A DNA stretch of 62,410 bases from Rhina ancylostomus (lineage: Eukaryota), in the NCBI GenBank assembly GCA_030265395.1, contig JARFYF010000001.1, positions 96,092,722 through 96,155,131 of the forward strand. Reading direction: 5' to 3'. The notes beneath the pieces were generated by a model. It ran no database searches, had not been told where the DNA came from, and saw nothing but the letters and a program-made list of their open reading frames with translations. The number at the start of each line of letters is the position of its first letter. Within the stretch, counting starts at the first letter, position 1. The position numbers and the translations under genes were made by a program. This document shows, piece by piece, positions 4,659-62,050 of this stretch.

Positions 4659-5672
4659 TAGAGAGGGACAGCGAAGAATCCTCCTCATTTTTGGCTGCCC
4701 ACAGAAATTTGTCTCCATTTTATGNNNNNNNNNNNNNNNNNNNNNNNNNNNNNNNNNNNNNNNNNNNNNNNNNNNNNNNNNNNNNNNNNNNNNNNNNNNN
4801 NNNNNNNNNNNNNNNNNNNNNNNNTCCATTTTATGTTTGCTTAGTGTATGGTTAGAGTTAGCTGTGATCTTACCCAATGAGTTCACAATGGATCCAATCT
4901 CGGGGCAATAAACAATCTGCTGGAGGAAGCGTTCTGATGCACGGTTTCAACTTGAAGCATCGACAATTTCTTTCCTCCCACAGATGCTACTCGACTTGCT
5001 GAGTTCCACCAGTACATTGTTTGTTGCTCCAGATATCAGAGTCTGCAGTCTCCTGTGGATCCAATCTCAGTGCAGACTGACATCAAGCAAGTCTGTGTCA
5101 TCACCCCCACATATATTTTAATCTTTCTCACCCCAGGCCGTACTTTCCCTCCAACAAGCTTCTCATTGGAATGGAACTCACCTTTAGAACTCATGGAAAA
5201 CTGTCAACCTACAACATCTTCTCCAGAACATGGGATACCCTAATCACAGTGGTCAGACTGCAGTATGAAGATGATGTTTATGCATGCATGCATTCAGAGG
5301 TTGATCTCAGTTATCATAAACTTTTCTGTGCAGAATCCACCTAACTTTCGCAAATGGAAGGTCCCCTACCAGCTCTCCTCACTGTACTATGCTACCTTCC
5401 AGCACTGAATGCCCACGGTGAAATGCTGAAAAATGTGAATTACTTCCCATGTTTTTGGAGACAACTCTCAGCCACTGCCAACATCAGAGAGGAAATTCAC
5501 CATGACCTTCAGTGTGCCAGCACAACTTTCCTCTATTTGAGGAAAAGGGAGTTTGAAGAGCAGGTTTGAACAGCAGCAGGTTTGCTGGGCAGCAATGATC
5601 CCTGCCCTCCTGAGTACTTCTGAAATTTGGACGACATACAGCAGGCACCTTAAGGCACAGGGAGATAACACA
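4659..5672 (+). mobile_element. RTE-clade LINE RT fragment, interrupted by a gap and a Penelope-derived insertion
   Basis: FGCPQKFVSIL; DPISVQTDIKQVCVITPT (cf. TGVKQGCVIAPT); LQYEDD (YADD); EEIHHDLQCASTTF.YLRKR.FE; AAMIPALLSTSEIWTTYSRHLKA; homologous to 41280-42075. Confidence 0.85.
4902..5055 (+). mobile_element. Short fold-back Penelope pLTR-derived element with 13-bp TSD
   Basis: TGGATCCAATCTC at 4889-4901 and 5056-5068; removing the insert restores the RTE sequence; antisense arm AAACAATCTGCTGGAGGAA then sense arm starting at a degenerate hammerhead motif (CTGATGC 4934-4940). Confidence 0.85.
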
Positions 5673-5937
5673 TCTTTAATTCACTCCTGTAGGACTAATT
5701 CTAATTTTAAGATTGTCTTCCTTTTTCTTTGATTCCTCACCAGAGAAAATATTTCTTTGTTGTCAAACTTGAAATCCTTACAAAAGCTTAAACAGTATAA
5801 TCAGATCAGCCCTCAGGCACTTAAGAGAATACACAAATGTTCCAATAAATTTAACCCTCTGATAAGCTGCCTAGATCATGAGCTGGAATGAGATTCAAAT
5901 CCACAAATTGAGGCAGGTAAGTAAAGGTAACACTAAT

Positions 5938-6159
5938 TTAAAAATAGAAGCAGATAGTGCTGGAAATGCTCAGCAGGTCAAGCAGCACCTGTGGAGGGAT
6001 AAACCGTCAGTGTTTCAGGTCAGCTCTGACAAAGGATCTTTGATCTGAAGCACTAACACTGTGTTTATAGATGTTGCCTGACCTGCTGAGTGTTTTCAGC
6101 ATTTTCTGTTCTTATTCTGGACTTCCTGCACAAGCAGGGTTTATTTCTTGCTTTTTGGT
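5938..6159 (+). mobile_element. Fold-back Penelope pLTR-derived element with 10-bp TSD
   Basis: Inverted arms TGCTGGAAATGCTCAGCAGGTCAAGCAGCA / TGTTGCCTGACCTGCTGAGTGTTTTCAGCA; TAACACTAAT at 5928-5937 and 6160-6169. Confidence 0.8.
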
Positions 6160-6994
6160 TAACACTAATCCAAAATGGTCACAAGTATAAATCAGTATCA
6201 AACAATTTGCAGAATTACTTTACTCTGACAGATTGTGCCTGCAGAATCATTTCCTCCAAGTAACTTTTTCAACCATAATAGATAAAACATAATGAGATTC
6301 TGTTAGTGGTTGATAACAATTGTCCAAAATTAATCAGGTTTTCATATAAATATATTGTTAAACACATGAGTCACATAATTGGAGCAACATAGCAAATGGC
6401 TGCATTTTTGAGTGATGCAGTATTCATGTATCATTGAATACAATGAAATATTTCCTCCTATGACGATTGTAGTAAATCAGGCTGATTAATTAGTGCTTTG
6501 TTTCAGTTTTGCCAAAGCTATTAATCCATGTCACCTGATGCGTGGTCAGTACACTCCATAGCTGTGTGCAAAGACTGATTGGATGTGGATGTTGGACGAA
6601 CACTAAGGGGCAGACGAGCTTCATGCCAAAGTAACTTTATTTTGGAATATCACTCCCCAAGTTTTCCAGCAACTGTTCCTTACGCAAAAAAAAAGTTTTT
6701 GCCATGAGGAATTAGTAAAGTATGTTGCTCAGCATGGTCATTTTCTCAGACTTTTACATTAGGGTTGATACCTCTGAATTATGAAAAAATGTATTGGCCA
6801 GTCTGCTTAGTTCACTGAAAAAAATGTTCCAGGATTTATTTTATGATTCTAAAAGAAAGTGGTATCGATATAAAAAAACCTGGCTGACAAAATTTAAAAG
6901 GAATCTATGGTCTCAGTGAGAGATGTAATTGTATTTGTTCACAGCAATCAAAGTAGCTTCAACAGCCTAGAAGTCAGTGGGTGAGATGTAAGTG

Positions 6995-7352
6995 CAAGTT
7001 TGGCTCACAATGGTATTATTCTCACGTCTGATTCAGACTGTGGGCTAAAGCGACAAGGTCAGTGGCAAGCTCTTTCAAGTGTGTTAAACCAAAGTGGACT
7101 TTGGGGGGGTGGTCCCTGAACACTTCAAAAATATCGCCCAGTTTGAAGCCAATGTTCATCTATCCACTGAATATCATTAAAAACTGGGTGGATCATCTCA
7201 GATGGTATTTGTAAGATCCTGCCATGTCTCACTGATTCCAGTAGTTTTCAGTTTGTTATGGGCACTGCACTTCAGAGAGTCAATTGCTACCTTTTGAGAT
7301 GCACTAGGGTATTTTGAGGATGTGACAGAAGATTTACCAATGCAAGTTCTTT
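6995..7352 (+). mobile_element. DeuSINE remnant
   Basis: Degenerate head GGCTCACAATGGTATTATTCTCACGTCTGA; 3' part CACTGCACTTCA...TTTTGAGGATGTGACAGAAGATTTACCAATGCAAGTTCTTT (L2-type tail). Confidence 0.6.
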
Positions 7353-7391
7353 ATTACATTACTTTTCTTATCTGACCCTGTGAAACTATTG

Positions 7392-7752: not shown

Positions 7753-8030
7753 AAACACCAGAAGATGTTTTTCCAGATTATACTCCCAATTGACTAAGAA
7801 CTCAAGGATCTGATTACAAAGACGTGTTGTCCAGTGTTACATTTTCAAATCTGCTGCCCAGTCCTCCTTCACTAAGGCTTAGGAATGATGGGGGCAGGGG
7901 CAGGTTTAGGGGCATGGGTTGCATCTGGAAAGTGGGGGAAAGGAATCAGCCCTCTTATGAGAAAATCAGAGTGCAACTAGCACTTAACTGGAGACCAAAG
8001 GTGGGGGGAGAATGAATATTTGACTGTTTG

Positions 8031-8219
8031 GAAGGAAGGCACTGTGGTTGGGTATTGGAAGGGAGGCACTGTGTTTGGTTGTTGGAGGAGACGCACTGTG
8101 GTTGGGTATTGGAGGAGAAGCATTGTGTTTGGTTATTGAATGAGAGGAGGTGTGGTTGGGGATTGGAGAGGAGGAGCTGTGGTTCTCAATTTGTTGGGAG
8201 GTGCTGTGGTTGGAGGATT
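8031..8219. repeat. 27-bp minisatellite, about 7 degenerate units
   Basis: Units such as GAAGGAAGGCACTGTGGTTGGGTATTG, GAAGGGAGGCACTGTGTTTGGTTGTTG and GAGGAGACGCACTGTGGTTGGGTATTG at 27-bp period. Confidence 0.9.
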
Positions 8220-9409
8220 TTGGAACTGAGTACCTTTCAGATCAGGTACCCAGAGATCTGGTTGAATATTAAGGTGGAAGAAATTGGTGCAATGCCAGGA
8301 ATGGGTGGCATTAAGGATCTATGTACGTAATGTACTTGTAGCTCTCCCAGACTGGCATTGTGGCTGAAGATCACGTTATAGTGGGTGTGTCTGATGATGG
8401 ATAGTCCCACAACAACATGGCTTAATTCAGCTGAGACATTGCTATTCCTTCCATGCATGACAGGTCTATCAAATTTGTTATAGCAGCAAATGCTCCATCA
8501 AATTTTCCTGGTGTTGCAGAATGACTCAGAAATACTCATTATCCTGTTTCATTGAAAAAGGGAAAATCAATTTTCATGTGCATGGTACTAAAAGCAGTGT
8601 GAGGCAATTCAATTTCCAGGCAATTGAAATTAGGAGATAGTGTTGGTGATCAGACACCCATATACATTCCAGCTGTCGTAAGCAGTTGGATTGCAGTGAG
8701 CTTTTCACACACTGTGGAAATAGCAACAATATACATTCTTGGGATCAGCCCTGTTTTGCACATTCCTTTCAAGAACTACATCCTGGGAGATTCAAATCAG
8801 ACACAACGATATGAGAGGAAGAGAATTTTTTATCACCTGGATTTTTGCATGTTTAATTTTATTGATTACAAGTTTTCAAATGACTGTATATGAAGGGTAC
8901 AATAAAGCTCCCTTGTTTGAGCGAATTACAATTTCATGCACTGAACTCTGGTCTGGTGTAGGTAAGGGAGAGAATCTGACAGACCTGAGGCATTGTTGGC
9001 AGTGAAGTTCGCTGATTAGATAAGGTGCCTGGGGCTAGTGGACAAAGTACAAAGGGTGGTGGTTTTGCTGATTGGGACTGCGACCTGGGGAGGATACAAG
9101 TTGACGGTGAGTGCGCCTGTGGGAGGTTGTAGTGTGTGGAGGTTGATGGGTTGTTTGGTGCATCGGCCAATTAGACGGTTAGACGTAAGATCAGTGGATG
9201 GGGCAAGTCTGGGTCTGAGCCGATTACTGGGTTAAGTAGGGAAAAGGGCTTTTGAGACCAAAGGCTAGGGAGTTGCCCAAAGGAAAGATTGTAAATGTAT
9301 GAGTTCTTAAAGTGATTTTTCAGTCTGGCACTTCGCCATAAGGATTTTGTCACATTGGAAATGTCTGATTGTGGTCGCTTCTGGGACTCATGGCTCAGTT
9401 TCATTCACA

Positions 9410-9507
9410 TGAAATGTCGACTGTCCATTTCCCTCCACAGATGCTGCCTGAGCCGCTGTATTTTGTTTGTTGCCCCAGATTTCAGCATGTGCAGTCTCTT
9501 GTGTCTC
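9410..9507 (+). mobile_element. Penelope pLTR-derived fragment
   Basis: GAAATGTCGACTGTCCATTTCCCTCCACAGATGCTGCCTGA...GCAGTCTCTTGTGTCTC, same family as 14638 and 61477; begins in the 3' half of the hammerhead motif. Confidence 0.8.
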
Positions 9508-10369
9508 CAAAAGGAAGGCTGTGTGGGGAATGACCTAATTTAAAGCATTTCTGATTCGGGGATTGTATGAGGGCGGACCAGATCAAATGTCCAGAATGAA
9601 GCAAAACAACCTGGAAATGGTCATTAGAGCTTGTCACCCTATTGCAAATGTAATTTCAACTGTGTGATGCTGAATTGAACTGCGCTGCCCAGTTAAACTT
9701 TGAGTNNNNNNNNNNTAGATTCTCTTGGTCATAAATGTTAGTTGGGTTCAATAATGCTAAACTACATTGGGTACCTGGAACAAGATGGCCAGTTGACTGG
9801 CTCAGTAATAACCACTTGTAAGGGGATCCTTGTGCAAGTTTTTCTTGATCTATTTTGGACTTCTTGAAATCCTTTCACTCAGATTGTCAATGTGGACATT
9901 CACAACAGAGGACACAGATACTGTATGTGTCCTAAAATGAAGAAACATAACTCAGTACTGGAAAGTTTATTATTACATGAAAAGAGCTTTGTGTCTTTCT
10001 TTTGAGGACTTTGACATTTATACACATAGTTGTTGAGATTGTTTATTGTATTAACGTAATTTATGATTTAAAAATGGAAGCCAGTGAACTATGCAAAAGT
10101 TGAAGCTGCATGTAAACAAAATGATAATGGAAACTATTTGAAGTATTGAGAAAGTTGGAGATATTTCTGATAAATTTTGGCGGTATCCATCTGAGGGCCA
10201 TTCAACAGGGAGTAGAAATAATTAAAAATGATATATTTGACTTCTTCTGACAATGTACAATGATTCCATACTGAAAGGAAATCTGTAAATCATCTACAAT
10301 CTCATGAGCACTGATTCCAACTCCACTCTGCAGTCTCCTCTTGCTTTCTGTCCTCCCCTGCACCCTTTT

Positions 10370-11544: not shown

Positions 11545-12040
11545 AGGCATTGCTGCTTCTTTACAGCTCCAGGTACCCAGATTTGATCCTGATCTGTGCT
11601 GCTGTCTGTGTGGAGTTTGCCTGTTGTTCCTGTGACTGCATGGATTTCCATGGGTGCTCCAGCTTCCTTTCACATCCTAAAGGAGTGCTGTTTGTTAGGT
11701 TAAAAACACAATGATGCTGGAGGAACTCAGCGGGCCAGNNNNNNNNNNCCTTGGAGAAAAGCAGGTGGTCAACGTCTCGGGTCAGAACCCCTCTTCAGGA
11801 TGAATCCACGGATGCTGCCTGACCTGCTGAGTTCCTCCAGCATCATTGTGTTTTTCATCTGGAGTCCAGCTTATGCAGTCCTTTGTTTCTTCTGTTTGTT
11901 AGGTTAATTGGCCACTGTAAATTGTTGCTCGTGTAGCTGGGTGGCGGGAGTTGATCAGCCTGTGAGAGAGGGTACTAACAGGGAAACAAGTAGGGGAATG
12001 GGATTGATGAGATTGTTCTGAGAACTTGCATTGACTTGTA
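11545..12040 (+). mobile_element. tRNA-derived V-SINE (HE1-like) with a nested insertion
   Basis: B-box-like GATTTGATCC; V-domain GTCTGTGTGGAGTTTGC...GGGTGCTCCAGCTTCCTTTCACATCCTAAAG; resumes at 11892 after the insert. Confidence 0.8.
11704..11891 (+). mobile_element. Fold-back Penelope pLTR-derived element with perfect 16-bp TSD
   Basis: CTGTTTGTTAGGTTAA at 11688-11703 and 11892-11907; arms ACACAATGATGCTGGAGGAACTCAGC / GCTGAGTTCCTCCAGCATCATTGTGT are exact reverse complements; hammerhead-like motif on the minus strand at 11767-11801. Confidence 0.9.
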
Positions 12041-13432: not shown

Positions 13433-14129
13433 GAGCTAAAACTTCACATCATGTTGGTGAACTAGTATCCATCCCCCACATTCAGCCCATGGGCCACCTG
13501 AGTATCTCAGTTTTACAGAACAATGATGTCCTTTTTCTGAATGGCTTGCTTCGTGCCATTACAATTCCATGATCCAATGGTTCCTGTCCTGACACGACCA
13601 CGTGTAGATTAGTAATCAGGACTGTAGGCTACAGTCTTTCCAGATTAAAGGTCAGGAAAATAATTTGCAGACCTTTATCATAGAGGTTCAGTATTGCTTT
13701 TCTCTCCAGCATTTTGAAGTAAGTCCTTGAGATGTTTCGATCAAGATTGTCCAAAGCAGTCCTCATTCAGAAATCAAATGGTTTGAAAATTTGCCCTTGG
13801 AATTCTGCTGTTTAGGAGGAAAGGAAGTGAGGGCCCAACAAATTGTAGATCTATTAGTTTAATATATGTTGTGAGGAAGTATTAGACTATTATTTGGGGA
13901 CAGGGTGACTGAGCAGTCGGAAAGAAGGAACTTCCTACCTAGCTGAATTTTTGAGGAGGTCATGTTAAATGAGAAGCAGTCTTTGGGTGTTAATTATATT
14001 TTTCCAGGAGATACTTGATGAGGGATTCTTAACAGGATTGAACACCATTGGATTGGCTGTCACTAATAGACATGAATGTGAAGTTAGTCATGAGCAAGGA
14101 AAAAAGGGTAATGGCAATATACTGAAATT

Positions 14130-14399
14130 AAGATAAGATCTTTATTAGTCACATGTACATCGAAACACACAGTGAAATACATCTTTTGCATAGAGTGTTC
14201 TGGGGGCAGCCCACAAGTGTCGTCACTCTTCCGGCACCAACGTAACATGCCCACAACTCCTAACCCATATGTCTTTGGAATGTGGGAGAAAACCCACACA
14301 GACACAGGGAGAACATACAAATTCCTTACAGACAGCACGGGATTTGAACCCGGGTCGCTGGTGCTGTAATAGCATTATGCTAACTGCTACACTACCATG
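14130..14399 (-). mobile_element. Young tRNA-derived V-SINE with AATAAA/(TCTTA)n tail
   Basis: Minus strand reads GGTAGTGTAGCAGTTAGCATAATGC (A box), GACCCGGGTTCAAATCCCG (B box), V-domain, then tail GTGACTAATAAAGATCTTATCTT; five copies in the window. Confidence 0.9.
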
Positions 14400-14637
14400 A
14401 TTTCCCCATATTAATCTTTACCAGAACTTTAGTTTTTCACATTTATCAAAGATAAAGGAATGGAGAGTTTGCTAATAATAAATTAGTAATTACAGTGAAT
14501 GGAGAGCAAGAGAATATTTCAAAGGGAAAATTGGAAGATTAATTAAGTGGCCTGAGCTTTGGCTAATGGAATTCCATAGGGCAAAGTGGGAGGTTATATG
14601 AAATCTCAGTGGCAAAAATGTGGAGGATGGAGATTTA

Positions 14638-14737
14638 GAGCAACAAACTAAATGCTGGAGGAACTCAGCAAATCAGGCAGCATCTGTGGAGTGGAATGGA
14701 CAGTTGACATTTCGGATTGAGACCCTTCATCTGGACT
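14638..14737 (-). mobile_element. Penelope pLTR-derived element starting at a hammerhead-like motif
   Basis: Minus strand AGTC-CAGATGA-AGGGTCTCAATCC-GAAAT-GTC-AACTGTCC...GCTGAGTTCCTCCAGCA. Confidence 0.85.
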
Positions 14738-17700
14738 CGATAATGATAATGTCATTAAATTTCAAGATGAAACTGAAGAGCTAAATCTTAACATCAGCTT
14801 GGTCTACTATTGTTCAGCCCAAGGACTTCATAGTGGTCTTTGTTGTAGTTTTGTCATACATCAACAACACATGCTTGTTCATTTGAAGTTCATCACTTTG
14901 AGATTTATAGTTTACTTCAAGAGGGCAATGCATCTTGCTCCAAAGTCATGTTAAAATGCCTGCTATCTTTGTACTAAAAGCTTGATGTAGATCCATCCAG
15001 CAGTGTGTTCCTTGCACAGAACTGACCAGTTTTGTTGTGTTCTTCTGGTATTCTGAACCTGACTTGTCTCTGAACAACTCGTTTCATGCACTCAATGAAC
15101 TTCTGATTTACTCTTCATTGTGCCATTTGTTGCAGTAATTTAACGATCCACATCACATTCATTTTCCCCCCATACTTGGATATTTGTTTTTCTGCAGCTC
15201 ATATTGTTGTCCACAATGCTTGTAATATCTAAGCTGTATTTTTCAGTTGTGTCTTTTGCCCTGTGCTTTACTGCAGCCCTCCATTCGGTTGGCCATCTAA
15301 TATTTCCAGCCTGATTTTTGAAATCAGCTTTGCATATCGTTATGAACTTCAGTGAAGAGCATGACTCCATCTCACTTAGTAATTCAGGCTGGACTCTAGG
15401 ATTCTATGAAAAATCCAATCTCTTAGGGTAGCAAGTCCTTCAAATCTGTAAAGTTGCAATCATCTGCTCGCAATCTTAGATCCATTAAGAAAGTATCAAA
15501 GGATTCTCCTCTTCCTGGTTATATGTAAATAACTGGTAACAGCCAACTGTTTTGTTTCTAGTTTAGGTTGCAATGCACTGGTAAAGTAAGTAATACATTC
15601 TTTAGCGGCTCTTNNNNNNNNNNNNNNNNNNNNNNNNNNNNNNNNNNNNNNNNNNNNNNNNNNNNNNNNNNNNNNNNNNNNNNNNNNNNNNNNNNNNNNN
15701 NNNNNNNNNNNNNTTCTTTAGCGGCTCTTTTGAGGGGTTCTGTGGTGTGTTACAAATCTCTCCACTTATAACAGGTACAATAATGCCTTTACCTTAGTCT
15801 GCTCCACTATTACCAGTTCAGTATTAAGTATAAACTCTTCCTTCCACTCTCTTCATTTCTTTGACAGATTATTCACCTGGAAATCCACTGACTCCCATCT
15901 CTATTTATTCCATCATCGTCTGTCTCAATTGAAATACATGGCTTACCATCTCTTGGCAAACATCCACATGTTATCTCAGCTGTAATCATGCTCACCATCT
16001 GATATCCCAATTCGGGTACAGCGCCCACGTTTCATAATTTTATCAACCATTCCAATCCTAGTGCTGTGTCTCAGTAGCTACTCTCATTGATTCACAAGGA
16101 AACTGAAGGATATTTGATCATTTAAACTAACAAACCAAGGAACTTTATTTGTAAAAGAATTTATGCTGTACAAAGCAGCATTTCTTACATGGCTGTACCC
16201 ACAGTTTTCCATGCTGAAACCCTGCAGCAATGTTACTCACATGCCCAAAGTTTCGGTAGTCAAAACCCAACCTTTGGAGGGAGTTCAGAAGGAACAAAAC
16301 CATAAAACTAGAGCTCAGCCATTCAGAGCTGATATGAATAAACAAGGATTGGACATTTGGTCGTTGTTTTTATTTACTGCTTGAATGAATTTTATGAAAA
16401 GCCCAATTGCTAAATTACCTACCACAGTCCCTATGTTTCTGCTTGATGACTCTCCTTGGGAGGCTAGGTTATTCAAAGTTTATGTGGTTATACCTTTAAC
16501 TTATATTAGCTGCCAGACTTCATCTTTCTAGCAGGGAAGAGAGCACATTTAATGGAACAGTTCATCCTCTGAAAGGTTATGACTGGAGCCGGACTGCAAG
16601 CGCTGCCAGGCTTCACTCTTCTGGCCTTTACAGCTTTTTCCAAATGAATGAAAATGCACACACTCAGTGCTGGTGGCCAAACTTCACTCTTGTGTTTTTT
16701 CTTGTCTGTGGAGCTTTTATGGAGGGAGCATCGTTGTTTTAATCACTATTCTTTGTGTGCCCAATTCATGTGGAGGGTTATCCACATATCAAACCAGGAT
16801 TCTGAGCAGTAGGCTATGTAAAATTTGTACCTTGTGCGACCCCAACAATGCCTCCAATTTTTTTGGCTTTTCAGAAACTGTTCATGATCTTTGATCAATT
16901 CTAGCCATGTAGTATCTTGTTGCTCACTTGAAGTATAAAAAGTTAAGGGTCTACTGCACCTATAATGGAGCACCTAGTTTGTTCTGGACAGTATAAGACT
17001 CTGCACAACCACAGGGACTGGTGCAGAGTCTGGTTTAAAAGCTGATATGATGGGTCTGCTAAGGCTTGAAGTCTATCAGTTTGTAAATCATAACTTTGTG
17101 TGTAACAGTTATAATGCATGGCAGAAGTCACGCTTTCACTATTGGTCAGGTTCGAGAAATGATTCTCTGTGTGCAGGACATTGAACTCATTCCTGCAGGT
17201 GCTATATTTTTGGATGAAATAACATTGCACCTTTTCAACCAACTTCTGAATAAAGAAATTACCATTGGAAAAAAAATCCATGCAAGAGCTCTAGCAAAAG
17301 ATTAATCCTAAATTTGGATGAGTTAAATAACCATTTCAACTGAACATAAAGTACAAACATAGTAAAATTATAAGGCTGTCCATTATTGTGTGGACTTGTG
17401 GAAAACTTGACAGTTAAGACTTAACCGACATTGCATTTCGCTTGACATGTGTGTTATCTCGAACTCTGAATCTTAAATCTGCACTGAATTAAATTTAGTC
17501 AACCTGGGGCATTCTTAGTATTCAATCTTTTCTACAAGATTTGTATGATTTATCACAGTTGCCAACTAAATAGAAGATTGATTCCTGCATTTCCTTTGGT
17601 CAAATGTTGGCACACAGGCTTCAATAAAGGTTTAACTATTGTTTGTTATAATGCGGGGAGAACTTGAGAGCTCCAACTCACCAGCAAATGTTGCCGTACT

Positions 17701-19812: not shown

Positions 19813-20496
19813 ATGGAGTGAACCTAATGGACATTTATCAATGCATGTAAACAACATGAGGGAAGCTGGTCATTAGCACTGGACTCCCCAAAACTTGCCA
19901 TTGTGGTATCTATGGCTGTTAAAAAGAATTACGTTAGGTAGAATTATGTTAGGTAGAATTAAGCAATTGTGATCTAATCACAAGAGTCTCCAGGAAAACT
20001 GCCACGTAGAATGAAGCCATTGATAGGTCAAAGATGTTCCCTGCGGTCAAAGCTCCGCTTGAATGACAACTCCTCATTAAGCAATGATGGGTAAATGGAC
20101 CTATTTCTGTAAGTTGTTAAGAGCATGGGAAGTAGGAAACAAGAATGGACCACATGGTTACATTGCAAATTAAATTGTTAGTTTACAGTTCAGTGGGAAA
20201 AATGTAAACATGTCCTTGGGCACATCTGGCTACTAAATAAAATTACAGACTGACATACTACTTTAGAGACCTCGCAATGTATTTTTCTCTTATAATGCGT
20301 GCACATAAACAAGTAAGCAGCAACCCAGAAGAAGCTTTTCTTCTCCTCCTAAACTTAAGGCTGTTGAAACCAATTTTATTTTGATATTTTTAAAATTCTT
20401 AATAATTTAATCAAGCAATAAAAAGAATATAGGTTAGTAAAGTTATAGTGTTCAGTAGTTCTTATCAGCATGTAAACTTTGTCTTGTGTATGCTTG

Positions 20497-20590
20497 GAGA
20501 CACAAGAGACTGCAAATGCTGGACTCTGATTCTGACTCAGATGCTGCCTGACCCATTGAGTTCCTCCAGTAGTTTGTATTTGCTCATATA
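20497..20590 (-). mobile_element. Short two-arm Penelope pLTR-derived element with TSD
   Basis: Antisense 3' end GAGACACAAGAGACTGCAAATGCTGGACTCTG joined to sense CAGATGCTGCCTGACCC...TTTGCTC; TATGCTTG at 20489-20496 and 20591-20598. Confidence 0.8.
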
Positions 20591-22062
20591 TATGCTTGTC
20601 CATTCTGAATCTAACTTATCTCATTTAAATTTTGATGCAGAATTTATCAAAGCTGAGGATTTTCAAATTCTATTCCAAAAATGAGAACTGATCATTGTAA
20701 TTATATAGCTCCGCCTGCCATGATAAATCAGATTCAGTGCAGACTGTGAAACAAACTAAAGATTTTCCTTGTTATGCTTCAGCTACTTGCTAGATAAATT
20801 TGTCCAGACAGAAGGACATGCTGAGGAGAATCTTAGTGTGCAAGAGAAAATTGAAGTGCAGCAAGAACAGGGCCTCAACACTTCAAGTTTAATTGAGGCA
20901 CTTTTTGTTGAGTGCAAGTAATCTGATTGCCCATGTTCGTACAATCATGAGCCAATTAATAATGCATTTAAGATGTTAATACAACGTAAATTCACTTTTT
21001 CATTCCTTTGAATTGAAAGCCTTCAGCATAGATTTAGGAAAACTTGCTGGTGCAAAGGAGGCATGTTTCAATTGCACTTAACAGTGGTTTAAAGTTAAGA
21101 GAACTCCACCTCAATAAAGCCTCAGCATTTGCAACAGCTTTGTCATTTCCCTGAGGCAAGTGTTTAGCTGAGTGCTTTTCTGCATGGAGGTTTTTGTGAA
21201 GCTTTGCCAAGGGATACAAACAGGATGGGAGGTGCCATGGATATTTTTAAACACAACATCAGAAGAAGGAGACTGCCACAATCCACAGTGCTGTGTTGGG
21301 ATCAGCGGAGCTGAAGGTGCATAGTGCAGAGCAGAAACCAAATCAGGGGCTGAGGTTGCAGAGTTGCATTGCCCACCAAACAGAGAAAGGCTTGGCTTTC
21401 CTCAACTGTCAAAGCAGCAGAGCTTCTGTGGGCTGCATTGTCATTTTGGGTTGGGGCAGGCAAGTACAGGCTTCCTGCTGGACCAGTTGTTGCAAAAGTC
21501 TCCACTGCCTTCAATGCTTTTGGTTCTGGTCCCTTCCAGGGCACCACTGGAGACTTGGCTACACAAAGGGTAGGTAAGGGATGGGTTGTTTGCAGGGATA
21601 ACCTCCCCCTACGATGCCAATTGTCAGAATAAATCATCATTAGCACTTGCCTTTCCAGCTGAGTTCTGAGAAGTGCATGGTGGCATTTATGACACACACC
21701 TAGAAATCCAAAGACCATCACGGCAGAGCCAGAAGCTGCAGTCCACCATGAGAAATGTTATTCCACTGATGCTCAGGTGATTTGCAATCTCAGCCAAGCT
21801 TTCCATCATGTCCTGAGTGGTAGCCCAATAGATGCCAAGATGCATTCATCCTGTGGTGGTGTAACACTGTATTTATTCAGGGGCAAGGCATTATAGACTG
21901 GCTCATAGGCTGATAGGAATCGAGAGAACATCCTCCTCCAATATTGCCTCATACCACCTGGGAGTGACCCCACCAATGCAGGATGTCAATGTCTCCTCAC
22001 ATGACTGCCATAGAACAAGCGCGTTGTAGCTGTGGCTCAGGTGCATGAAACATCTATTACAT

Positions 22063-29145: not shown

Positions 29146-29954
29146 CTCATTGAAACCATGTTGGTTTTCACTTAATGCAATGCAATGCAATGCTCTACGT
29201 GGGTGTCCCAAATATAGACCCCCTAACATGAACACAGTTTGTACCCAGCCAGTACTAATAAGGGCATTTGAAAATCTGAATTAACATCATCTTGATTCTC
29301 TCATTTTAAAAAAAGCATTAAAAACATGAATGTTTTTCAATTGTGTTGGTAAATCATTAGCCAACCTTAAAGTAAACAGGGCTGTTCAATAATAAAGCCC
29401 CCACTGACAGGTGATTGCTGTGTGTGAGTCATATCCAATTACTAATCCAACTTGGTTAATGAAATATCAAGATATTGCTAAATCTGCATTTTAAATGTTG
29501 AAGCGAAGGGAATTCGTGCAGTGCTTTATCAGATGTTGAATTGATAGTGGAAGTGTTGTCTGTGAAGTAAATCTCTTATAGGAGGCCAGTTAATGATTGT
29601 GGTATGTTAAAAGCAAGCATTCTCGAGTATTATAATGGTGAGCCGTGTGTTTCCAATTTCTATTGTGGAAAAGCTGAGAGAGAATGTAGAAAGGATTTGG
29701 AGGATTAGTGTTCCTGCCTTATTGCTGTTGCGTTAATAGGTTGACATTGTGGATCAAGAGTCAAAGTCATTAAAAAAAAGCCAATTGGAGATAGTGACTG
29801 TGATGGGTTAGAATTACCTTCAGGAAGTTTTTTATGCAAAAATTAAAGACTTTTTTAATGGAAGTTCTTCATGCTCAATGATTCAGTTACTGCCAGCCAG
29901 GTTTGTACTGGTTGCTCATTTGCAGCCTGTCCAAAAATACATCTTTATACAAAT

Positions 29955-29986
29955 CTGATGAAGGGTTTCGACCTGAAACGTTGACT
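29955..29986 (+). ncRNA. Minimal type I hammerhead ribozyme motif (core intact, 5' strand of helix I lost)
   Basis: CUGAUGA-A-GGGU(UUCG)ACCU-GAAA-C-GUU-GACU: core boxes, helix II, palindromic ACGU in place of helix III and an NUH triplet. Transcription and activity are not shown. Confidence 0.7.
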
Positions 29987-30039
29987 GTCCATAGATGCTG
30001 CCTGACCTGCTAAGTTCCTCCAGCTTTTTTGTGTGTCTC
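29955..30039 (+). mobile_element. Penelope pLTR-derived element with 15-bp imperfect TSD
   Basis: TCTTTATACAAATCT (29942-29956) versus TCTGTATACATATCT (30040-30054), 2 mismatches; body ATAGATGCTGCCTGACCTGCTAAGTTCCTCCAGC. Confidence 0.85.
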
Positions 30040-30517
30040 TCTGTATACATATCTAAATCTTTCACTATATAACGTTAAAATGTGAATTTGCTTAGGTTGT
30101 GCACGATCTGTTTTGTAATATTTCTGTGAAGCAACTTATTGAAGCTAATTTCATATTTCACTTGTGCGACATTGCAAAATAGAGATTTGGAGATGGGGAG
30201 TAAGATAGGGAGTGCTGGGACATTTCTGCAGGCATTAGGCCCTAGTAATTTCATTGCACTATTTTGGTTAGGCAGCTTCCCTTCAATTAATTACTTACCA
30301 GTTCTTCAGGCTGCTCTCCCCAACCCCACACCCACCCCACAACACAGCATCAAACCCCACCTACTAGCTAAGCTCATGAACCTTATCTGATACATCCCAT
30401 TCCACTTTCAGGGCCTCAGACCATGACAACTTGAACCAAAGGCCCACATCACCTAGAACCACTGTCAACAGGCTCTGAACTTGCCACTTGCCCGACTGAC
30501 TGCCAATCAGAGGTCAA

Positions 30518-32924: not shown

Positions 32925-33328
32925 TTTTATTTATCATTTATTCGCTGGGTACTGTTGAGAGGATCAGTGTTTTTCATATCCATTTCAAATTGCCTTTGGG
33001 CTGTCTGGCTTACTTGACCATTTCAGGGAATAGTTAAGAGTCAACCATATTGTTTGGGTATGGAGTCATGCATAGGCCAGACTAGGTAAGGACAGCAGAT
33101 ATCCATTATTGAAACAGATGTTTTGTTTTTACATCCAATAGTTACATGATTATCATTACCACAATCAAATTTTGAAGCAACATAGTCCAGCATCTGCAGT
33201 CTCTTATATCTCCAACTAAATTTTGAAATCCAGTTTAAGTTCCCCAGCTTCCAGCGATTTGAATCTGCAGATCAATAGTCCTGATCTCTGGATTATTAAT
33301 CCAGAAACATAACTGCTAAATCACCATG
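32925..33328 (-). mobile_element. Old SINE-like repeat sharing its tail with the CR1-group LINE at 12880 and 56900; contains a 41-bp Penelope-derived insert
   Basis: TCAAATTGCCTTTG..GACCATTTCAGGGAATAGTTAAGAGTCAACCA..GGCCAGACTAGGTAAGGACAGCAGAT; insert AGTCCAGCATCTGCAGTCTCTTATATCTC between AAATTTTGAA copies at 33167-33176 and 33218-33227. Confidence 0.6.
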
Positions 33329-38290: not shown

Positions 38291-38699
38291 TTTTGCAGAG
38301 GGTATGCTATGACATCCGATGATCAACTCATTGTTGAACCAGGTATTACATTTGCAGTCTGGTTCAGCTGGAAATAGTGGACAAGATAGAGTAGCAGCAT
38401 CTGTGGACATGACCAAATATATAATCTCTGTTGCTCACATGCTGGGTCTTCCTTGGATGCCATTTGCTACTTTCTTCTCTAGTTATAGAAATTACTCTGT
38501 TGAAGCTGGCACACCTGGCTTCTGTGGTTAATGAATGAAAGCACTAGCATTGCTTTCTGAAGCTCCATTTGCCCAGTTATGGTGCAGCCAAAATTTCAGC
38601 AGTACATGATAACAACACAGGTCTGTTGAGTAGACAATTAATTATCTCTATTAAGGAGCTCAGAAAATAAGATATGAGACTAAACATAAGATGGATGTT

Positions 38700-38770
38700 T
38701 TCAGATGTCAGGCAGCATCCATGGAGAGAGAAATCATTAATGTTTCAGGTGGATGAGCTTTCATTAGAAC
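38700..38770 (-). mobile_element. Penelope pLTR-derived fragment
   Basis: GTCAGGCAGCATCCATGGAGAGAGAAA..TTAATGTTTCAGGT..CTTTCATTAGAAC; ends at a decayed hammerhead core. Confidence 0.65.
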
Positions 38771-42075: not shown

Positions 42076-43551
42076 ATAATGTTCCTTTAGCATGCATGAA
42101 ACCTGCAGCAGAAGTTTACTGATATGTAACCATTTTCCTTCTATACTGTATATTCATACTGAGGTTCATGTAACCTAGTGTCTCCCCAGATTCTCTTCTG
42201 CTGCTAAACCAACATCTGCTGGCCAGGATTAGTTTCCTGCCCACTGAGGAATAACTGATCCGGTGTTTGTTCTGTAAGCAGAAAATTCAAGGGGTGGCGG
42301 TAACTAATATGTTGAATTTGGCTCTATGGAACTGATATTCCAGCTCATACGGTAGCCCTTCACCGTTCCCTTAACTTGGAACACAGTAGTACATCCTGTG
42401 CCCATGTATTACTCTTCCCCGGTGTTTTCATGGAAGAACTCAAAATAATATACTTTAATACCACCACTTCCTCAGTAAAGTTGGCTATTTATACCATCCT
42501 GTTTTTGCTGTTCTGTGTTATTTAAAGAGCAATATTATATTCAGGGAGGTGGGGGAAGTTAACCTTCAAAAAGTGGGTCGGCTGGATTGGAATGAGTGAT
42601 GGTAAAATCTCAACCAATCTTTCTGCCTGGGGTTGGGTAATGGATGGCAGCTCTCACTATCTTGTTTGGCCATTTACGTAAAATAATAATGAGACTGGGG
42701 TGGGGGGCTCAAACTTAACCAGCTTCACAGGTTTAACCCCCGTATGGCCATAGCAAATAGCTATGAGACCGAAGCAGAGAAGGAAAAGTGTGAGCATCCT
42801 GGGGTGCATTTCACTCCGACCACTTCAGTTTGCCTACTTGCCTACTCCAACGCATCAGTCGTCACAAAATGTACCTTTTCTTTCATCCTTCTATGCCAGT
42901 GCACTTCCCCACCATTCACCATTTACTCTCACCCTTGTCCATAGTCATGAGTCTCCCTCAAAATCACCCTCAGCACAAGGTTTCCGTCCATAGGCTCAAC
43001 ACTGTTTCACTGGTCTCTTGCCACCTTGTGGGAAAAGAAAGCACAAAGCTCAAGGCAGAGGCAGAAAACCTGAGGTGGCCCTTCATTGTAAGCAGGGGAG
43101 GTTGATGAGATTGTGGGGAGAATAGGCCTTTGGGAAAATTTCTGGGTGAACGGCATTGCTCTGTGAGGCAGTGTAAACTTGATGGACTGAATAGCCTCCT
43201 TCTCTGTTGTAAGGAAATATGGAAGTATTTCACTCAGGAACTTGACATGTCCTACAGGAGCTGGTCGAGCTGGAAGTTTCCTCAGAAAGCTAACCAAAGC
43301 TACCCCCCTCGGTATTCCAGCCATAGAATTAATGATGACCAGGGGCTAGCTCAGATACCCACAGCTTGGTGGGGCTCATGTGACAGCTGTGTTTACACCT
43401 GTTGATTCAGACATCACAAATGATAGTAAACAATGTTAAAGACAGGAACAGAGAAGGAGAATCCCTGTAAGAGCATGCTTCACGCTGTGCTCATCTGGAA
43501 GCAGATGCTGCAGTTACAAATAGGATACCTCTGGAGAGCAGCAGTGCATGC

Positions 43552-43742
43552 GTAATAAAAACAGAAAATGCAAGATAGGCAGCATCTATAGATGTAGGAA
43601 CAGAGTTAATGGTTCAGGTCAGAGACCCATCATCAGAGACTGTGTGAAAAACACAATGATACTGGAGGAACTCAGCAGGCCAGACAGCATCCGTGGAGAA
43701 AAACAGGCAGTCAACATTTTGGGTCAGGACCCTTCTTCAGAT
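43552..43742 (-). mobile_element. Two adjacent Penelope pLTR-derived elements
   Basis: First AAAAACAGAAAATGC..GGCAGCATCT..AGAGTTAATGGTTCAGGTCAGAGACCCATCATCAGA; second AAAAACACAATGATACTGGAGGAACTCAGC..GTCAACATTTTGGGTCAGGACCCTTCTTCAG. Both end at the hammerhead motif. Confidence 0.8.
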
Positions 43743-47345: not shown

Positions 47346-47784
47346 GGTCAGCCATAGTTCTCCTCTCACAGTGCAGAGTCCAAGCCATTGTAAAAATAAT
47401 CTCAGTATTCTCAAAGGTGCTTAGGATCATTTAAAGTTGCAAGTGGTGGAACTTCTAAATCATCCTGTATGACTGCAGGGGCATGTCTTGTACCCTCTTC
47501 CTATAGCTACTATCAGATGTTACCAGATGCTTTTGTCAAGGTCATTTGATTCTAAAAGGTAACTGCGGTTCCAAAGCAAGCTTTTAGAAGGAGACGATCT
47601 TAGGTTAAGAACCACTATTCTCTGAAGTTCCTTGGTTTCACTTGCCCGCAGATACTTACTACTCTGAATTCCTGGGGATGAAATAATTATGTTAGTACTT
47701 GTGAAAAATATGTGAGATCGCTGGCTACATATTACTTACAACCGTATCCTTGGTGTGCAAAATTTAAAAAAATGACCATCAAAA

Positions 47785-47971
47785 AAATGAAGAAGCTGAA
47801 AACCTGAAATCAAAACACAAAATGCTGGAGATGCTTAGCAGGTCAAGAACAGTTAACATTTCGGGTCAAAGATTCTTCAGGAGTTCTGATGAAGGGTCTT
47901 CGACCTGACTTGTAACTGCTTCTCTTTCCACAGATACTGCCTGAGCTGCTGAGTTTTTGCAGCATGTTTTT
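47785..47971 (-). mobile_element. Fold-back Penelope pLTR-derived element
   Basis: AATGCTGGAGATGCTTAGCAGGTCA / CTGAGCTGCTGAGTTTTTGCAGCAT arms; back-to-back decayed hammerhead motifs (minus 47850-47881, plus 47882-47917); possible TSD ATGACCATCA / ATGACCTTGA. Confidence 0.8.
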
Positions 47972-48948: not shown

Positions 48949-48969
48949 GCAGGTACGGTAGTGTAGCGA

Positions 48970-49110
48970 GGCAGGCACGGTGGTGTAGCAGTTAGCATAA
49001 TGCTATAACAGCACCAGCAACCCGGGTTCAATTCCTGCCACTGTCTGTAAGGAGTTTGTACTTTCTCCCCGTGTCTGCGTGGGTTCATCTCCGGGTGCTC
49101 CAGTTTCCTC
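48970..49110 (+). mobile_element. Young V-SINE 5' half (runs into gap)
   Basis: GGCAGGCACGGTGGTGTAGCAGTTAGC..CCCGGGTTCAATTCC..GTCTGTAAGGAGTTTGTAC. Confidence 0.9.
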
Positions 49111-50728: not shown

Positions 50729-51894
50729 GGGTGACCAGATAGTGTATGTGAATAAGAGGAGAACTTCTTTGTAAAGGAGATTGGTAAACGGAGTTTGATG
50801 TCTATATCAACAACAAAAGGTGCACAAAGGACTGCCTTGTGGAATCCTCCTCAGTTTCCAGCACCTGCAGTTTAGTATTCAAATGACTTGGCTTGGTGCA
50901 AAATCTCTTTTCTGCTGATTATGTAACTGTATGGTCCATGCTGACCTCACCTGCTCAGTATGCCTCATGTTAATCCAGGTACCCTTCATAATGGGAGAAT
51001 TGTGTTGAATACAAGCTTTGCAGATGGGTGCACTTACAAATGAAATCACCTTCTTTCAAAAGTACGATGCTGGAAGTTTCAAATTAAATCAGAAAATGCT
51101 TGAAAAACTCAGCATGTGGAGGGAGAGAGACGTGAGCTGGGCATTTTCCAGGTGAAAGGCCGTTCTGCCCTACCTCCGTATTCTTGCATACATTCCCATA
51201 TGTGTTGACTCAATTGGGCAAAGCATGGCTGAGCACCAGCCCACACAACAGAACCTCAACACTGCACCCTTCCTGAGCTCCTTCACTCTCCGCAAACAGA
51301 GACTACAAGCTTACTGGCCATCCATCACCGCCTCACAAGGAGTAACCCTTGACAGTTTCCACATGTTCACCAGTCTGTTCATAGATAAGAAAAGACTTGA
51401 GCAACATTTTGGGAGATGTTGTAACAAAGTACTCAGCATCCACAAACTCAATAATATCCTTTAGCACTGTTCTTTACTCGATGAGCTGCTTCAGTGAAAA
51501 GATGTCCTGATCACTAGTGATTCAGTAACCACTTTTCGAACATAACTAACTTGTTTCATTGAGATGGGGATGTAAACTATTTTAATCCTCCTTTTTAAGG
51601 TTAATGTCTGTTGTAATTAGCATTAACATTGCCATGTATAAGAAGTTTTCAAAACATTGCATCCTTTGTGAATAAGAAGTGATACTCAATTAGATTCAGA
51701 TCTAAGATTCATTATCTTTGGACATATTGGTTAAGCTTATTCCTTGGCTGCATCATAAATATCTCATCTCAATTACCTATGAACAGTATTGCAANNNNNN
51801 NNNNNNNNNNNNNNNNNNNNNNNNNNNNNNNNNNNNNNNNNNNNNNNNNNNNNNNNNNNNNNNNNNNNNNNNNNNNNNNNNNNNNNNNNNNNNN

Positions 51895-52040: not shown

Positions 52041-52043
52041 AAT

Positions 52044-58147: not shown

Positions 58148-58300
58148 CAGGCAGATCTGTGGAGAGAGAAACAATTAACATGTCAGGTCAATGATTCTTC
58201 TTCATGGGTTTGAAATGGTTACTCTGTTTCTTTCTCTACAGATACTGCATGATTTGATGACCATTTCCAGCATTTCAGATTTCTAGTATATGCAGTGTTT
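58148..58300 (+). mobile_element. Old fold-back Penelope pLTR-derived element
   Basis: GGCAGATCTGTGGAGAGAGAAACA / CTGTTTCTTTCTCTACAGATACTGC inverted arms, ending TTTCAGATTTCTAGTATATGCAGT. Confidence 0.7.
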
Positions 58301-58594
58301 CGCTTGTAAATGAATTTCAGATCGCTTTTTGCCTTTTTTCTCCCAGAAAAAAACAGAAGATGTACCAATATTAATATAGTTGAAAAGGGAACATCCATAG
58401 GGAATATAGTTGAAAAGGTTACAGAAATAGGTTATTCATGTGCGTTATTGGTGTACAATCAGTTTGATCCAGTTTTGTGTACAAACATGAAATGTACAAA
58501 AATAATGAGGTATGGTGTTATAAGGAAGCTATGGAGTGTGGTATGGATACAATACATGTGTATTAGTGCTAAAGATAAGGGGGTCTTGCTTTTA

Positions 58595-58883
58595 GCACAG
58601 TACTGTAGTGGTTTGCGAAATGCTATTCCAGTGCCAGCGACCCGGGTTCATTTCCCGCCACTGTTTGTAAGGAGTTTGTACCTTCTCCCCGTGTCTGCGT
58701 GGGTGTCCTCCGAGTGCTCCGGTTTCCTCATTACAAAGGTGTACAGGTTAGGAAGTTGTGGGCTTGCTATGTTGGTGCCGAACTGTGGTGATACTTGCGG
58801 GCTGCCCCCAGAACACGCGACGCAAAAGCTGCATTTCACTGTGTGTTTCGACATACATGTGACAAATAACGATATCTTATTAT
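58595..58883 (+). mobile_element. Young V-SINE, near full length
   Basis: GCCAGCGACCCGGGTTCATTTCCCGCC..GTAAGGAGTTTGTAC..CATGTGACAAATAACGATATCTTATTAT. Confidence 0.9.
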
Positions 58884-58929
58884 TTAAATCAACCAAATCC
58901 AGGTGAACTAACACAATAAAAGAAGTTAT

Positions 58930-60434: not shown

Positions 60435-60655
60435 AACATGGAAATAGGGAATAAGAGTAGACCCTTCAAGCCCACTTGGCCATTCAATCTGACATGGCTG
60501 ATCATCTGTCCAAATACCATATTGGTGCTCTCTCCCATTACATCTTGATGCATGGTGCATATAAAAATACATCCATCTCCTCCTTTAAGGAATTCAGTGA
60601 CTTGGCCTCTAAAGCCCTATGTGCTCGTGAATTCCACAGGTTCCCTACCTTCTGA
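60435..60655 (-). mobile_element. CR1 3' terminus
   Basis: ACATGGAAATAGG..GTAGACCCTTCAAGCCC..CCATTCAATCTGACATGGCTGATC..GACTTGGCCTCTA..GAATTCCACAGGTTC. Confidence 0.8.
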
Positions 60656-60669
60656 TGATGTTTCTAGTC

Positions 60670-61345
60670 ATCTATTTCCAGCGCCTCTGCTCTCACCCCT
60701 TCTCCAGAAATAGAGCAGAGATCCACAGGTCTTCAACCCCACCGCCCTCCACATTCAACACAATTTCCACGTGCGCCAACAAGCTTCCATCCCTTCCCAT
60801 CCCCATCCTCCACCCTCCAACCTTCCAAAGGGACTGGGTTCCCTTTGCGATCCCCTGGTCTGTTCTTCTGTCCCTTTCTTATAGTGATTCCCCCATGCAA
60901 CCACCCAAGGTGCAGGACTTGTACTTCCACGTCTTCACTTCCCATCATCCAGGGATCCAAACAGTCTTTCCAAATAAAATAGTGATTCACTTGCGCTTCT
61001 TCCAATCCAGTGCACTGCACTTGATGTTCAGAATCTGGTCTCCTCAACATTGGAGAAACCAAATACAGATTAGGTGATCGCTTTGAGGAGCACCTGCATT
61101 CAGTCCGCAGAGTACGCCTGCTTTCATACTATCAGAGATATTACCTTTGTTTTACCCATCCCCCCCTCTCTCTCTGCTACTCAAAACTAAGACCATATGA
61201 CCATAACTAACTTGTTTCCTCTCCCAGTTCTGACGAAGGATCCCAGACTTGAAACATTAACTGTTTTTCTTTACACAGATACTGCCTGACCTGCTGCTTG
61301 TTTCCAGCATTTTCTGTTTTTATTTCAGATTTACAGCATTTGCAT
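60670..61345 (+). mobile_element. Penelope-like element 3' remnant: linker, GIY-YIG endonuclease fragment and pLTR
   Basis: About 60893-61111 translates PCNHPRCRTCTSTSSLPIIQGSKQSFQIK**FTCASSNPVHCT*CSESGLLNIGETKYRLGDRFEEHLHSVRR (Cys linker plus GIY-YIG, with stops); the pLTR shared with the short elements follows at 61225-61345. Confidence 0.9.
61225..61263 (+). ncRNA. Minimal hammerhead ribozyme motif in Penelope pLTR (decayed)
   Basis: CAGUU-CUGACGA-AGGAUCCCAGACUU-GAAAC-AUU-AACUG: perfect 5-bp helix I, core boxes intact, weak helix II, ACGU changed to ACAU (CpG transition). Confidence 0.65.
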
Positions 61346-61379
61346 TCTTTAATGATTTTCATTTATTTATAATGTCATA

Positions 61380-62050
61380 GTTTCTCCTCATATCAGTCCT
61401 AAATGTCTTACCCTGTGATCTGCACCATGATGTTGTTCTACACACCCAGACATTCTCTCTACATCAAGTCAGTCTAATGGAGACACAAGAGACTGCAGAT
61501 GCTGGACTCTGGAGCAACAAACAAATCTGCTGGAGGAACTCAGCAGGTAGAGCAGCAACAGCGTGAGTAAAGGAATTGTCAATGTTTTGGGTCGAAACCC
61601 TGTGGGAGAAGGCGGGGTGAGAGCAGAAGTACCAGAAACAGAGGAGATGCGAGATCGCGCTCCATCGACCACAGCAGAAGGGAAGCCGCACTTCCTGAAA
61701 TAGGTCATTTCAGTTGTCCTGGAACAGAAAGCCTCATCTTGTGAGCAGATGCAACAGAAACGGACAAACTGGGAGAAAGGAATGACATCCTTACAAAAGG
61801 CAAGGTGGGAAGAGGTGTAGTCTAAGTAGCTGTGGGAGTCAGGCAGGGTTTTGACCTGAACATTGACAATTCCTTTCCTCATACAGATGCTGCTCGGCCC
61901 AGTGAGTCTTCCAGCAGATTGGTTGTTGATCAACTCAGTCTAGCCTTATCAGGATTTCGCATCAAATATCCTCTCATTCTTCTAAACTGTAGTGAATACA
62001 GGCCTAGTCGATCCAATCTCTCCTCTTGCACCAACAGTCAGCCTCATGAA
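61380..62050 (-). mobile_element. CR1 ORF2 C-terminal fragment hosting a Penelope-derived insertion
   Basis: TTTCTCCTCATATCAGTCCTAAATG before and CCTCTCATTCTTCTAAACTGTAGTGAATACAGGCCTAGTCGATCCAATCTC after the insert. Confidence 0.75.
61477..61928 (-). mobile_element. Penelope mini-element: inverted pLTR arms around an internal RT-thumb coding fragment, 14-bp TSD
   Basis: ATCAAGTCAGTCTA (61463-61476) / ATCAACTCAGTCTA (61929-61942); arms about 61477-61605 and 61840-61928; internal minus-strand DSHSYLDYTSSHLAFCKDVIPFSQFVRFCCICSQDEAF...RKCGFPSAVVD is typical of PLE ORFs. Confidence 0.9.

Follow-up and report, generated by a model that had tools for sequence, protein, structure and literature searches.

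Short hammerhead-bearing repeats from the ends of Penelope-like elements in the genome of Rhina ancylostomus

A stretch of 62,410 nucleotides from Rhina ancylostomus (contig JARFYF010000001.1, positions 96,092,722 to 96,155,131; hereafter the window) is strewn with copies of a roughly 130-nt unit that begins with a hammerhead ribozyme motif. The unit is the end repeat of Penelope-like elements (PLEs). Described here are its short, separately inserted copies, or stubs, which share their ancestry with longer copies of the same elements and whose 5' ends cluster at the hammerhead front. Unit positions are numbered so that CTGATGA, the core motif, opens at +1, the preceding base being 0.

Insertions in the window

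Three motifs of the unit repeat on both strands of the window. A profile built from 11 window copies gives 26 matches there (E <= 10), and profiles of six subfamilies give 20 matches at 18 bits or more. Three short fragments (4899-4928, 20505-20532 and 33177-33204) are detected only by the 11-copy profile. Together the 20 profile matches and the three fragments make up 16 insertions, one per 3.9 kb, and six of these are head-to-head pairs of arms. An original prediction, made from the letters of the window, had listed 15 sites with the unit whole or in part; all were recovered, along with a weak sixteenth. The same prediction had assumed a single family, but the window copies belong to five subfamilies. 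The insertions are listed below, with target-site duplication shortened to TSD.

4889..5068, plus strand: 13-bp TSD, a short inverted arm at about 4902-4928 (minus strand) and a full subfamily A unit at 4931-5055 that starts at -2
5928..6169, no single strand: subfamily E head-to-head pair with a 10-bp TSD (5928-5937 / 6160-6169)
9405..9510, plus strand: subfamily A unit with tail, from about +15; the 5' half of the core is gone and no TSD was found
11688..11907, no single strand: subfamily C head-to-head pair, minus arm -1..+101 and plus arm +44..+132, 16-bp TSD, with a gap of 10 N at 11739-11748
14628..14739, minus strand: single tail-less subfamily B unit, -5..+106, with no TSD above chance
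20489..20598, no single strand: small core-less head-to-head insertion, a tail piece on the minus strand and +47..+97 on the plus strand, 8-bp TSD
29942..30054, plus strand: single subfamily B-type unit from +1..+3 with the core pattern intact, 15-bp TSD (13/15)
33167..33227, plus strand: tail-only insertion of 41 nt, hammerhead-less, 10-bp TSD
38684..38770, minus strand: old subfamily E unit, -2..+88
43545..43637, minus strand: old subfamily D unit, 0..+106, abutting the next copy
43642..43740, minus strand: subfamily C unit, +1..+99
47774..47970, no single strand: subfamily E head-to-head pair, both arms starting at the hammerhead front (+1 and -3); the flanks share only a 6-bp match, which is at chance level
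51066..51163, minus strand: weak old unit (22 bits), absent from the sites first listed
58148..58308, no single strand: old subfamily E head-to-head pair, +2..+59 and +32..+129
60752..61353, plus strand: longer copy with linker and GIY-YIG remnant with stops (60752-61111), a shortened pyrimidine-rich untranslated region (UTR) and the unit, core at 61230
61463..61942, minus strand: internally deleted element with a 14-bp TSD (13/14), an inverted arm at about 61843-61928 (plus strand), a C-terminal reverse transcriptase (RT) fragment at 61849-61601 (minus strand; P0001) and a unit with tail at 61602-61477 (minus strand)

The last of these is the element layout in miniature: inverted arm, RT fragment, tailed unit and TSD. 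At 43545-43740 the D and C units lie head to tail on the minus strand, one possibly inserted at the other's head. No head-to-tail tandem array of the unit occurs in the window.

The seven TSDs first described are all present with the lengths given for them, 13, 10, 16, 8, 15, 10 and 14 bp, in agreement with the claim that the stubs arose by independent insertion events. The 8-bp duplication is the weakest of the seven, because pairs drawn at random from the window score 8 in 3.5% of trials and 9 in 0.8%. Several insertions were also said to split older repeats. Among seven reconstructed empty sites this is borne out only at 11688, where the insertion interrupts an older dispersed repeat of the window's abundant second family and the empty site matches a repeat elsewhere in the searched sequence (11 spanning matches). 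The other six sites had no such match, the single one for 33167 being the site itself. The description of the copies as hammerhead-headed is too strong; the arms at 9410, 20497 and 33177 start within or after the core.

The abundance of the unit was measured in an unbiased sample consisting of the window, 100 kb on each side of it and thirty 20-kb blocks from seven other contigs of the same genome (862,410 bases, 750,066 of them non-N). Here the subfamily profiles gave 165 matches at 18 bits or more, compared to none in the reversed sequence. These represent 145 insertions, one per 5.2 kb, of which 125 are single and 20 head-to-head; extrapolation from 145 insertions in 750 kb suggests about 370,000 genome-wide. 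TSD scores of at least 9 occur in 11 of the 65 single copies examined (null 1.2%) and in 11 of the 20 head-to-head pairs (null 4.5%).

Parent elements and ancestry of the stubs

Loci picked by endonuclease or RT sequence carry a pyrimidine-rich UTR, mostly several hundred nucleotides long, followed by the unit. Clustering of these UTRs yields six subfamilies, A to F, and the unit alone puts 65 of 71 long copies into the same subfamily as their UTR. A seventh is represented by L211 (G000:C2762:1-3287), which was reached by walking upstream through the RT. The ends of this contig overlap by 77 nt, giving one complete 3,210-nt tandem unit in which a frame of about 917 amino acids runs without a stop across the end overlap; several copies that are nearly identical may have been collapsed into this contig by the assembly. 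An exact pattern taken from L211 matched only its own contig in the assembly. No intact open reading frame (ORF) was found in four further stretches, nor in 20 loci chosen for long open frames, because these frames ran through assembly gaps.

In L211 the unit is flanked by the stop codon of the endonuclease (637-639) and the next start codon (1096, or +168), with the core at 929. The 3' ends of the stubs thus fall upstream of the start codon, and the unit doubles as the 3' end of copies in the genome and as leader to the ORF that follows, an arrangement shared with other PLEs. L211 UTR and leader sequences also have matches of 95-100% identity in four public runs filed under four different organisms, which points either to close relatives or to a widely shared young element.

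L211 encodes a single ORF with an RT as well as a GIY-YIG domain at its C terminus and so fits the definition of an endonuclease-bearing PLE. The corresponding Pfam matches (RVT_1, E 4.5e-5; GIY-YIG, E 2.3e-4) are both below curated cut-offs. Its GIY-YIG domain has two internal cysteines, and its translation contains VYCIRCSRCGLLYIG, a feature of endonuclease-bearing PLEs according to the available text of PMC8557442. Between RT and endonuclease lies a CX2-5CxxC linker, a Neptune feature shared with Nematis; it reads CKRRRCYTC (CxxxxCxxC) in L211 and PCNHPRCRTC in the window remnant. The parents further display a hammerhead end repeat, a tail at one end only, an inverted truncated copy and a variable TSD. 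By these sequence features the parent elements would be classed as Neptune-type PLEs, and the Penelope origin first proposed for the unit is upheld, since it is the end repeat of at least seven such subfamilies. The GIY-YIG remnant noticed beside the unit at 61225 was likewise recovered by tblastn with the intact element (60752-61111, 46% identity, E 6e-21).

The subfamily consensuses fold into a stem II, a stem I of 3-5 bp and a 4-nt palindrome in place of helix III. As modeled, the motif is of the minimal type I, dimer-type hammerhead design described by Cervera and de la Pena (PMC4209133). Dimeric small hammerheads were reportedly treated by Lunse et al. in 2017. In 23 real copies, 79.6% of cells are paired in register, compared to 22-44% when the pairing is slid. 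One stem I pair switches between C-G and U-A among subfamilies (7 v 7), with covariation scores that do not exceed those of a shuffle control. The strict core pattern is found in only three genuine window copies (29955, 61230 and 47880), and once more at 12661 outside any copy. An Rfam scan of the kind suggested in the original prediction matched no hammerhead family in the window or in L211:880-1100, minimal hammerheads falling below those models here. Core variants run through whole subfamilies, CAGATGA in B and CTGAAGA in C, despite high copy number, and may reflect relaxed ribozyme activity. Most genomic copies show CpG-type decay in the helix III palindrome.

One proposal for the short copies was a non-autonomous family, like short interspersed elements (SINEs) or retrozymes, that is copied from short masters. 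A recurring length, TSDs of their own and a density of about one per 5.2 kb would suit such a family, and non-autonomous Penelope derivatives exist (PMC8557442 and bioRxiv 10.64898/2026.07.22.740005, in the text available). A separate lineage was sought in five subfamilies with 89 short and 71 long copies (26/14, 22/14, 20/11, 9/17 and 12/15), unbiased and search-picked loci being mixed. After correction no variant is private to the short copies in any of the five (best p 0.009, in D), and none emerges from a comparison of 25 v 25 pattern-picked subfamily C copies. Divergence is equal in short and long C copies (7.8 v 7.5%). On a tree of all 160 units, short and long labels are intermixed, changing 48 times compared to 50.3 +/- 2.6 in within-subfamily shuffles, of which 52 of 200 were as low as observed.

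Short copies are therefore not a separate lineage but share common ancestry with long copies, although a minority short lineage could be hidden by the 9-26 short copies per subfamily and their 7-19% decay. They occur in every well-sampled subfamily, so that short masters would require parallel origins in at least five. The junctions individual to each head-to-head pair and the lack of a tandem array in the window also argue against short masters, as does an analogy with the lizard element PAc described below, which requires RNA downstream of its start sites that the stubs do not have (PMC11167929). No RNA polymerase III head (tRNA, 5S or 7SL) is present: the stubs begin at the hammerhead and have no tRNA or Rfam match. 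A SINE- or retrozyme-like family is accordingly improbable. The other option that had been raised, extreme 5' truncation of a PLE, is right about lineage and wrong about shape. Private variants are absent, as in ordinary truncated elements, but the distribution of lengths is sharply non-smooth.

Ends of the stubs and their possible origin

Among 153 matches that reach +80 in the unbiased sample, 71 have their 5' ends within -10..+9, four end in -40..-11 and 16 at the profile edge. The stop rate is 4.9% per nt in -10..+9, compared to 0.66, 0.35 and 0.41% per nt in flanking zones (145 uncensored, 8 censored), an excess of 7-14 times. This boundary, here called the wall, is located at the front of stem I. 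Among 11 single copies with a TSD score of at least 9, the TSD boundary falls at -6..+3 in six, at -23..-31 in three (a small inverted piece is present in two of these, and the third is probably a false match) and at +37 and +57 in the remaining two. In head-to-head pairs, 22 of 40 arms start at the wall.

Sequence upstream of wall copies has a pyrimidine fraction of 0.51 (n = 42 usable non-inverted copies, 26 inverted and 3 gap-cut copies having been set aside), compared to 0.50 for the genome and 0.71 for UTR-linked copies (n = 18); resemblance to the element dies away over the bases from -1 to -4. Because this upstream sequence is background-like, the wall is not an artefact of missing UTRs, and hidden UTRs of unsampled subfamilies were rejected as its cause.

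Bases -4..0 form the 5' arm of stem I and at the same time an acceptor-like site. We take them to be an initiator-like motif (pyrimidine-CAGT-pyrimidine) as well. A pattern in which A(-3) is retained and C(-4) is not has 3,102 matches; base -4 was counted by hand in the first 100 of these, after 29 UTR-linked copies had been set aside by eye. In the remaining 71 copies this base is G in 34, A in 25 and T in 12. Compared to an expectation of about 25%, the excess of G is significant (p 3e-5), and G at -5 is at background (15/71). At three loci (L296, L326 and L353) a single G stands between TSD and element, though that of L353 may instead have arisen from A by substitution. Copying of a cap is marked by an extra 5' G.

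At the other end, stubs stop at two sites. In subfamily C (the first 70 of 3,222 exact internal-pattern matches, with 0 matches in the control), 26 copies end at +95..+101 and 36 at +125..+133. These sites, about 30 nt apart, correspond to the known one-sided 'tail' of Penelope elements. Of 20 inverted pairs, 16 carry the longer end on exactly one arm and none carries it on both. PAc, a Poseidon element of the green anole (Frangieh et al. 2024, PMC11167929), behaves alike: two internal start sites define its tail, both target strands are cut and extended, and the start sites are preceded, about 100-150 nt upstream, by its hammerhead. It differs in that its ORF begins in stem II and its start sites are in coding sequence, whereas here they lie in an untranslated leader, the ORF opening at +168. 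Where genomic copies end on the 5' side, as tabulated here, is not analysed in the main text of that report.

The stubs very probably derive straight from the RNA of autonomous elements. We lean, with moderate confidence, toward the view that they are run-off copies of full-length Neptune-type PLE RNA that were started inside the leader and ended at the hammerhead front. By analogy with PAc, the endonuclease would nick the target and reverse transcription would be primed there, with an internal start at about +96 or +128, and nicks on both strands would lead to head-to-head pairs. The RNA would begin at about -3, within the initiator-like motif. Starts in the first repeat of the transcript would then generate run-off stubs of about 100-135 nt, and starts in the downstream repeat would generate ordinary truncated copies linked to UTR and ORF. 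As judged from the sequence pattern, the wall is somewhat more likely to be the RNA 5' end than anything else, and the evidence favours, without proving, run-off at this end. A narrower and more tentative version holds that the stubs are integrated 'strong-stop' DNAs: the RNA would be capped at the first base of stem I, the cap copied as an extra G, and reverse transcription started 100-130 nt downstream on both nicked target strands. This version is possible, but we would not call it probable.

Several observations weigh against run-off at the RNA 5' end. Almost a third of the 5' ends (48/153) fall short of the wall at +10..+69, and the wall itself is about 10 nt wide. In the youngest subfamily, C, the stop rate is 1.6% per nt at the wall compared to 0.47-0.65% per nt, only about 3-fold higher (12 of 48 uncensored copies at the wall, 22 of 70 being cut by assembly gaps). 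PAc belongs to the Poseidon clade. In D. virilis Penelope, according to the available text of PMC4209133, helix I begins at a splice acceptor that lies 46 nt of exon and 75 nt of intron downstream of where transcription starts (PMC4209133, PMC2377424). The matching position in that element is thus an intron end, about 120 nt from the RNA start. The G excess has weaknesses of its own. Among nine TSD-supported loci, six have 5-13 extra bases (one of them probably an internal match) and one has none, and the 40 loci inspected were hand-picked, mostly for having G. G precedes about 32 of 67 starts at -2 (hand count), where A-to-G change confounds the count. The extra G could also be due to untemplated joining instead of cap copying.

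A less likely explanation retains the same RNA but sees in the wall a site of pausing, fold-back or frequent joining, not an RNA end. After the 5' arm of stem I has been copied, the end of the complementary DNA might pair with its own copy of the stem I 3' arm and be joined there, or a ribozyme-protein complex might stop the enzyme, with the product joined to the target at that point. This would explain why the wall lies at stem I in all subfamilies, why the spike varies among them and why several junctions duplicate the element start or flank. Self-priming has been argued from palindromic junctions of rotifer elements in the available text of PMC3846280. However, a structural block should act as soon as the enzyme runs into the stem, at about +33, and there is just a low shoulder there. 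Stem I is only 3-5 bp long, and the G excess at a single position is left unexplained.

The low shoulder of ends, at +26..+47, and the fit to a minimal type I hammerhead fold are also what could be cited for 5' ends made by ribozyme self-cleavage. The predicted cut follows about +28, some 30 nt downstream of the wall, and no sharp peak occurs there; cleavage is moreover dispensable for PAc in vitro (PMC11167929). Self-cleavage can largely be dismissed as the origin of the main peak, and there is very little chance that it makes the stub ends.

It is also unlikely, if less so, that the wall is a splice junction, with the pyrimidine tract and CAG serving as a 3' splice site and the stubs being copied from spliced RNA whose first exon is very short or comes from the host. 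All seven of seven subfamilies have a pyrimidine-rich run that closes with AG at -3/-2, and the D. virilis helix I beginning at an intron end is a precedent (PMC4209133, available text). A donor-like motif at the stop codon has 2,140 matches genome-wide compared to 41 in the control. The predicted joined form has only six, four of which are UTR variants and at most one a possible ORF-end remnant. The sequence upstream of wall copies is not common to them, and some TSDs adjoin the element with 0-1 extra base. Splicing from the stop-codon motif was rejected as the cause of the wall on the count of six joined against 2,140 unspliced matches.

The stop codon of several subfamilies is embedded in this near-perfect splice-donor-like motif (for example at GIY-YIG loci L038, L047 and L078), and the UTR has an acceptor-like site at its opposite end, yet the genome contains essentially no joined copies. 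Contigs of one presumed-RNA public run contain joints across the UTR, which may come from other subfamilies.

Neighbouring repeats, known relatives and significance

Other repeats share the window. A second abundant dispersed family, which presumably resembles tRNA-derived vertebrate SINEs, is found at 11552-11680, 14126-14399, 19416-19510, 23878-24147, 48856-49085, 50269-50553 and 58595-58885. A tandem array of about six G-rich 27-nt units occupies 8028-8216. A repeat common to 41310-41600 and 4663-4724 has a weak RT-family match (Pfam E 9e-4) and is probably a remnant of a long interspersed element unrelated to Penelope elements. The '197-nt, 96%' inverted pair at 31621-31817 / 39907-40103 is largely an artefact, because each arm contains a 100-N assembly gap. 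Of the 82 stop-free frames, 50 were scanned with Pfam, and none of these showed a host gene domain.

The closest relatives are the endonuclease-bearing Neptune-type PLEs of Craig et al. 2021 (PMC8557442). In the available text of that report these elements are alike in their heavy 5' truncation, an adjacent inverted truncated copy, a 30-40-bp tail on one end only, a variable TSD, a hammerhead near the 3' end and a CxxC linker before the C-terminal GIY-YIG domain. Truncation is given there as variable, whereas here 5' ends pile up sharply at stem I and are accompanied by a G excess. Metazoan PLE hammerheads (Cervera and de la Pena 2014, PMC4209133, available text) share a short helix I, an extra base before stem II and a palindromic helix III remnant. 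They are mostly single dispersed motifs, described as 'probably related to truncated PLEs', and include opposite-strand pairs 100-700 bp apart. Cartilaginous fish are not named in the main text of that report, and the present copies differ in the core variants of B and C and in the CpG-type decay of the palindrome.

Animal non-LTR retrozymes (Li et al., bioRxiv 10.64898/2026.07.22.740005, available text) are likewise non-coding, hammerhead-bearing and derived from PLE end repeats, and have been reported in one chondrichthyan and as dispersed monomers. Unlike the copies studied here, which are monomers or head-to-head pairs ending at PLE start sites, retrozymes are by definition arranged in tandem, head to tail, every unit having a complete hammerhead. 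On the features compared, the stubs belong to neither the retrozymes nor the SINEs.

All structural features except the wall and the G excess have already been described for Penelope-like elements, and these subfamilies likely have an existing Dfam or Repbase entry. In the literature searched, which did not extend to subscription journals or supplements, no stubs in cartilaginous fish, no 5' pile-up at stem I and no G excess in front of it were found. The present analysis adds an intact parent, controlled stop rates, a test for a short lineage, evidence that disposes of one splice model, and the excess of G.

As a family the stubs are ordinary, and repeats of about 130 nt such as these would be mis-annotated as SINEs or miniature inverted-repeat transposable elements. 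Their value is as a natural experiment on how PLEs regenerate their end repeats and make inverted ends. They provide testable coordinates in the fixed 3' sites, the rule of a tail on one arm, the 5' wall and a possible cap-derived G, and L211 supplies a template and a protein for testing. If the strong-stop reading is true, several hundred thousand stubs would preserve both the point where transcription of these elements begins and their first intermediate, and would suggest that end repeats are regenerated by a jump from the RNA 5' end to the downstream repeat, like that of long terminal repeat (LTR) elements.

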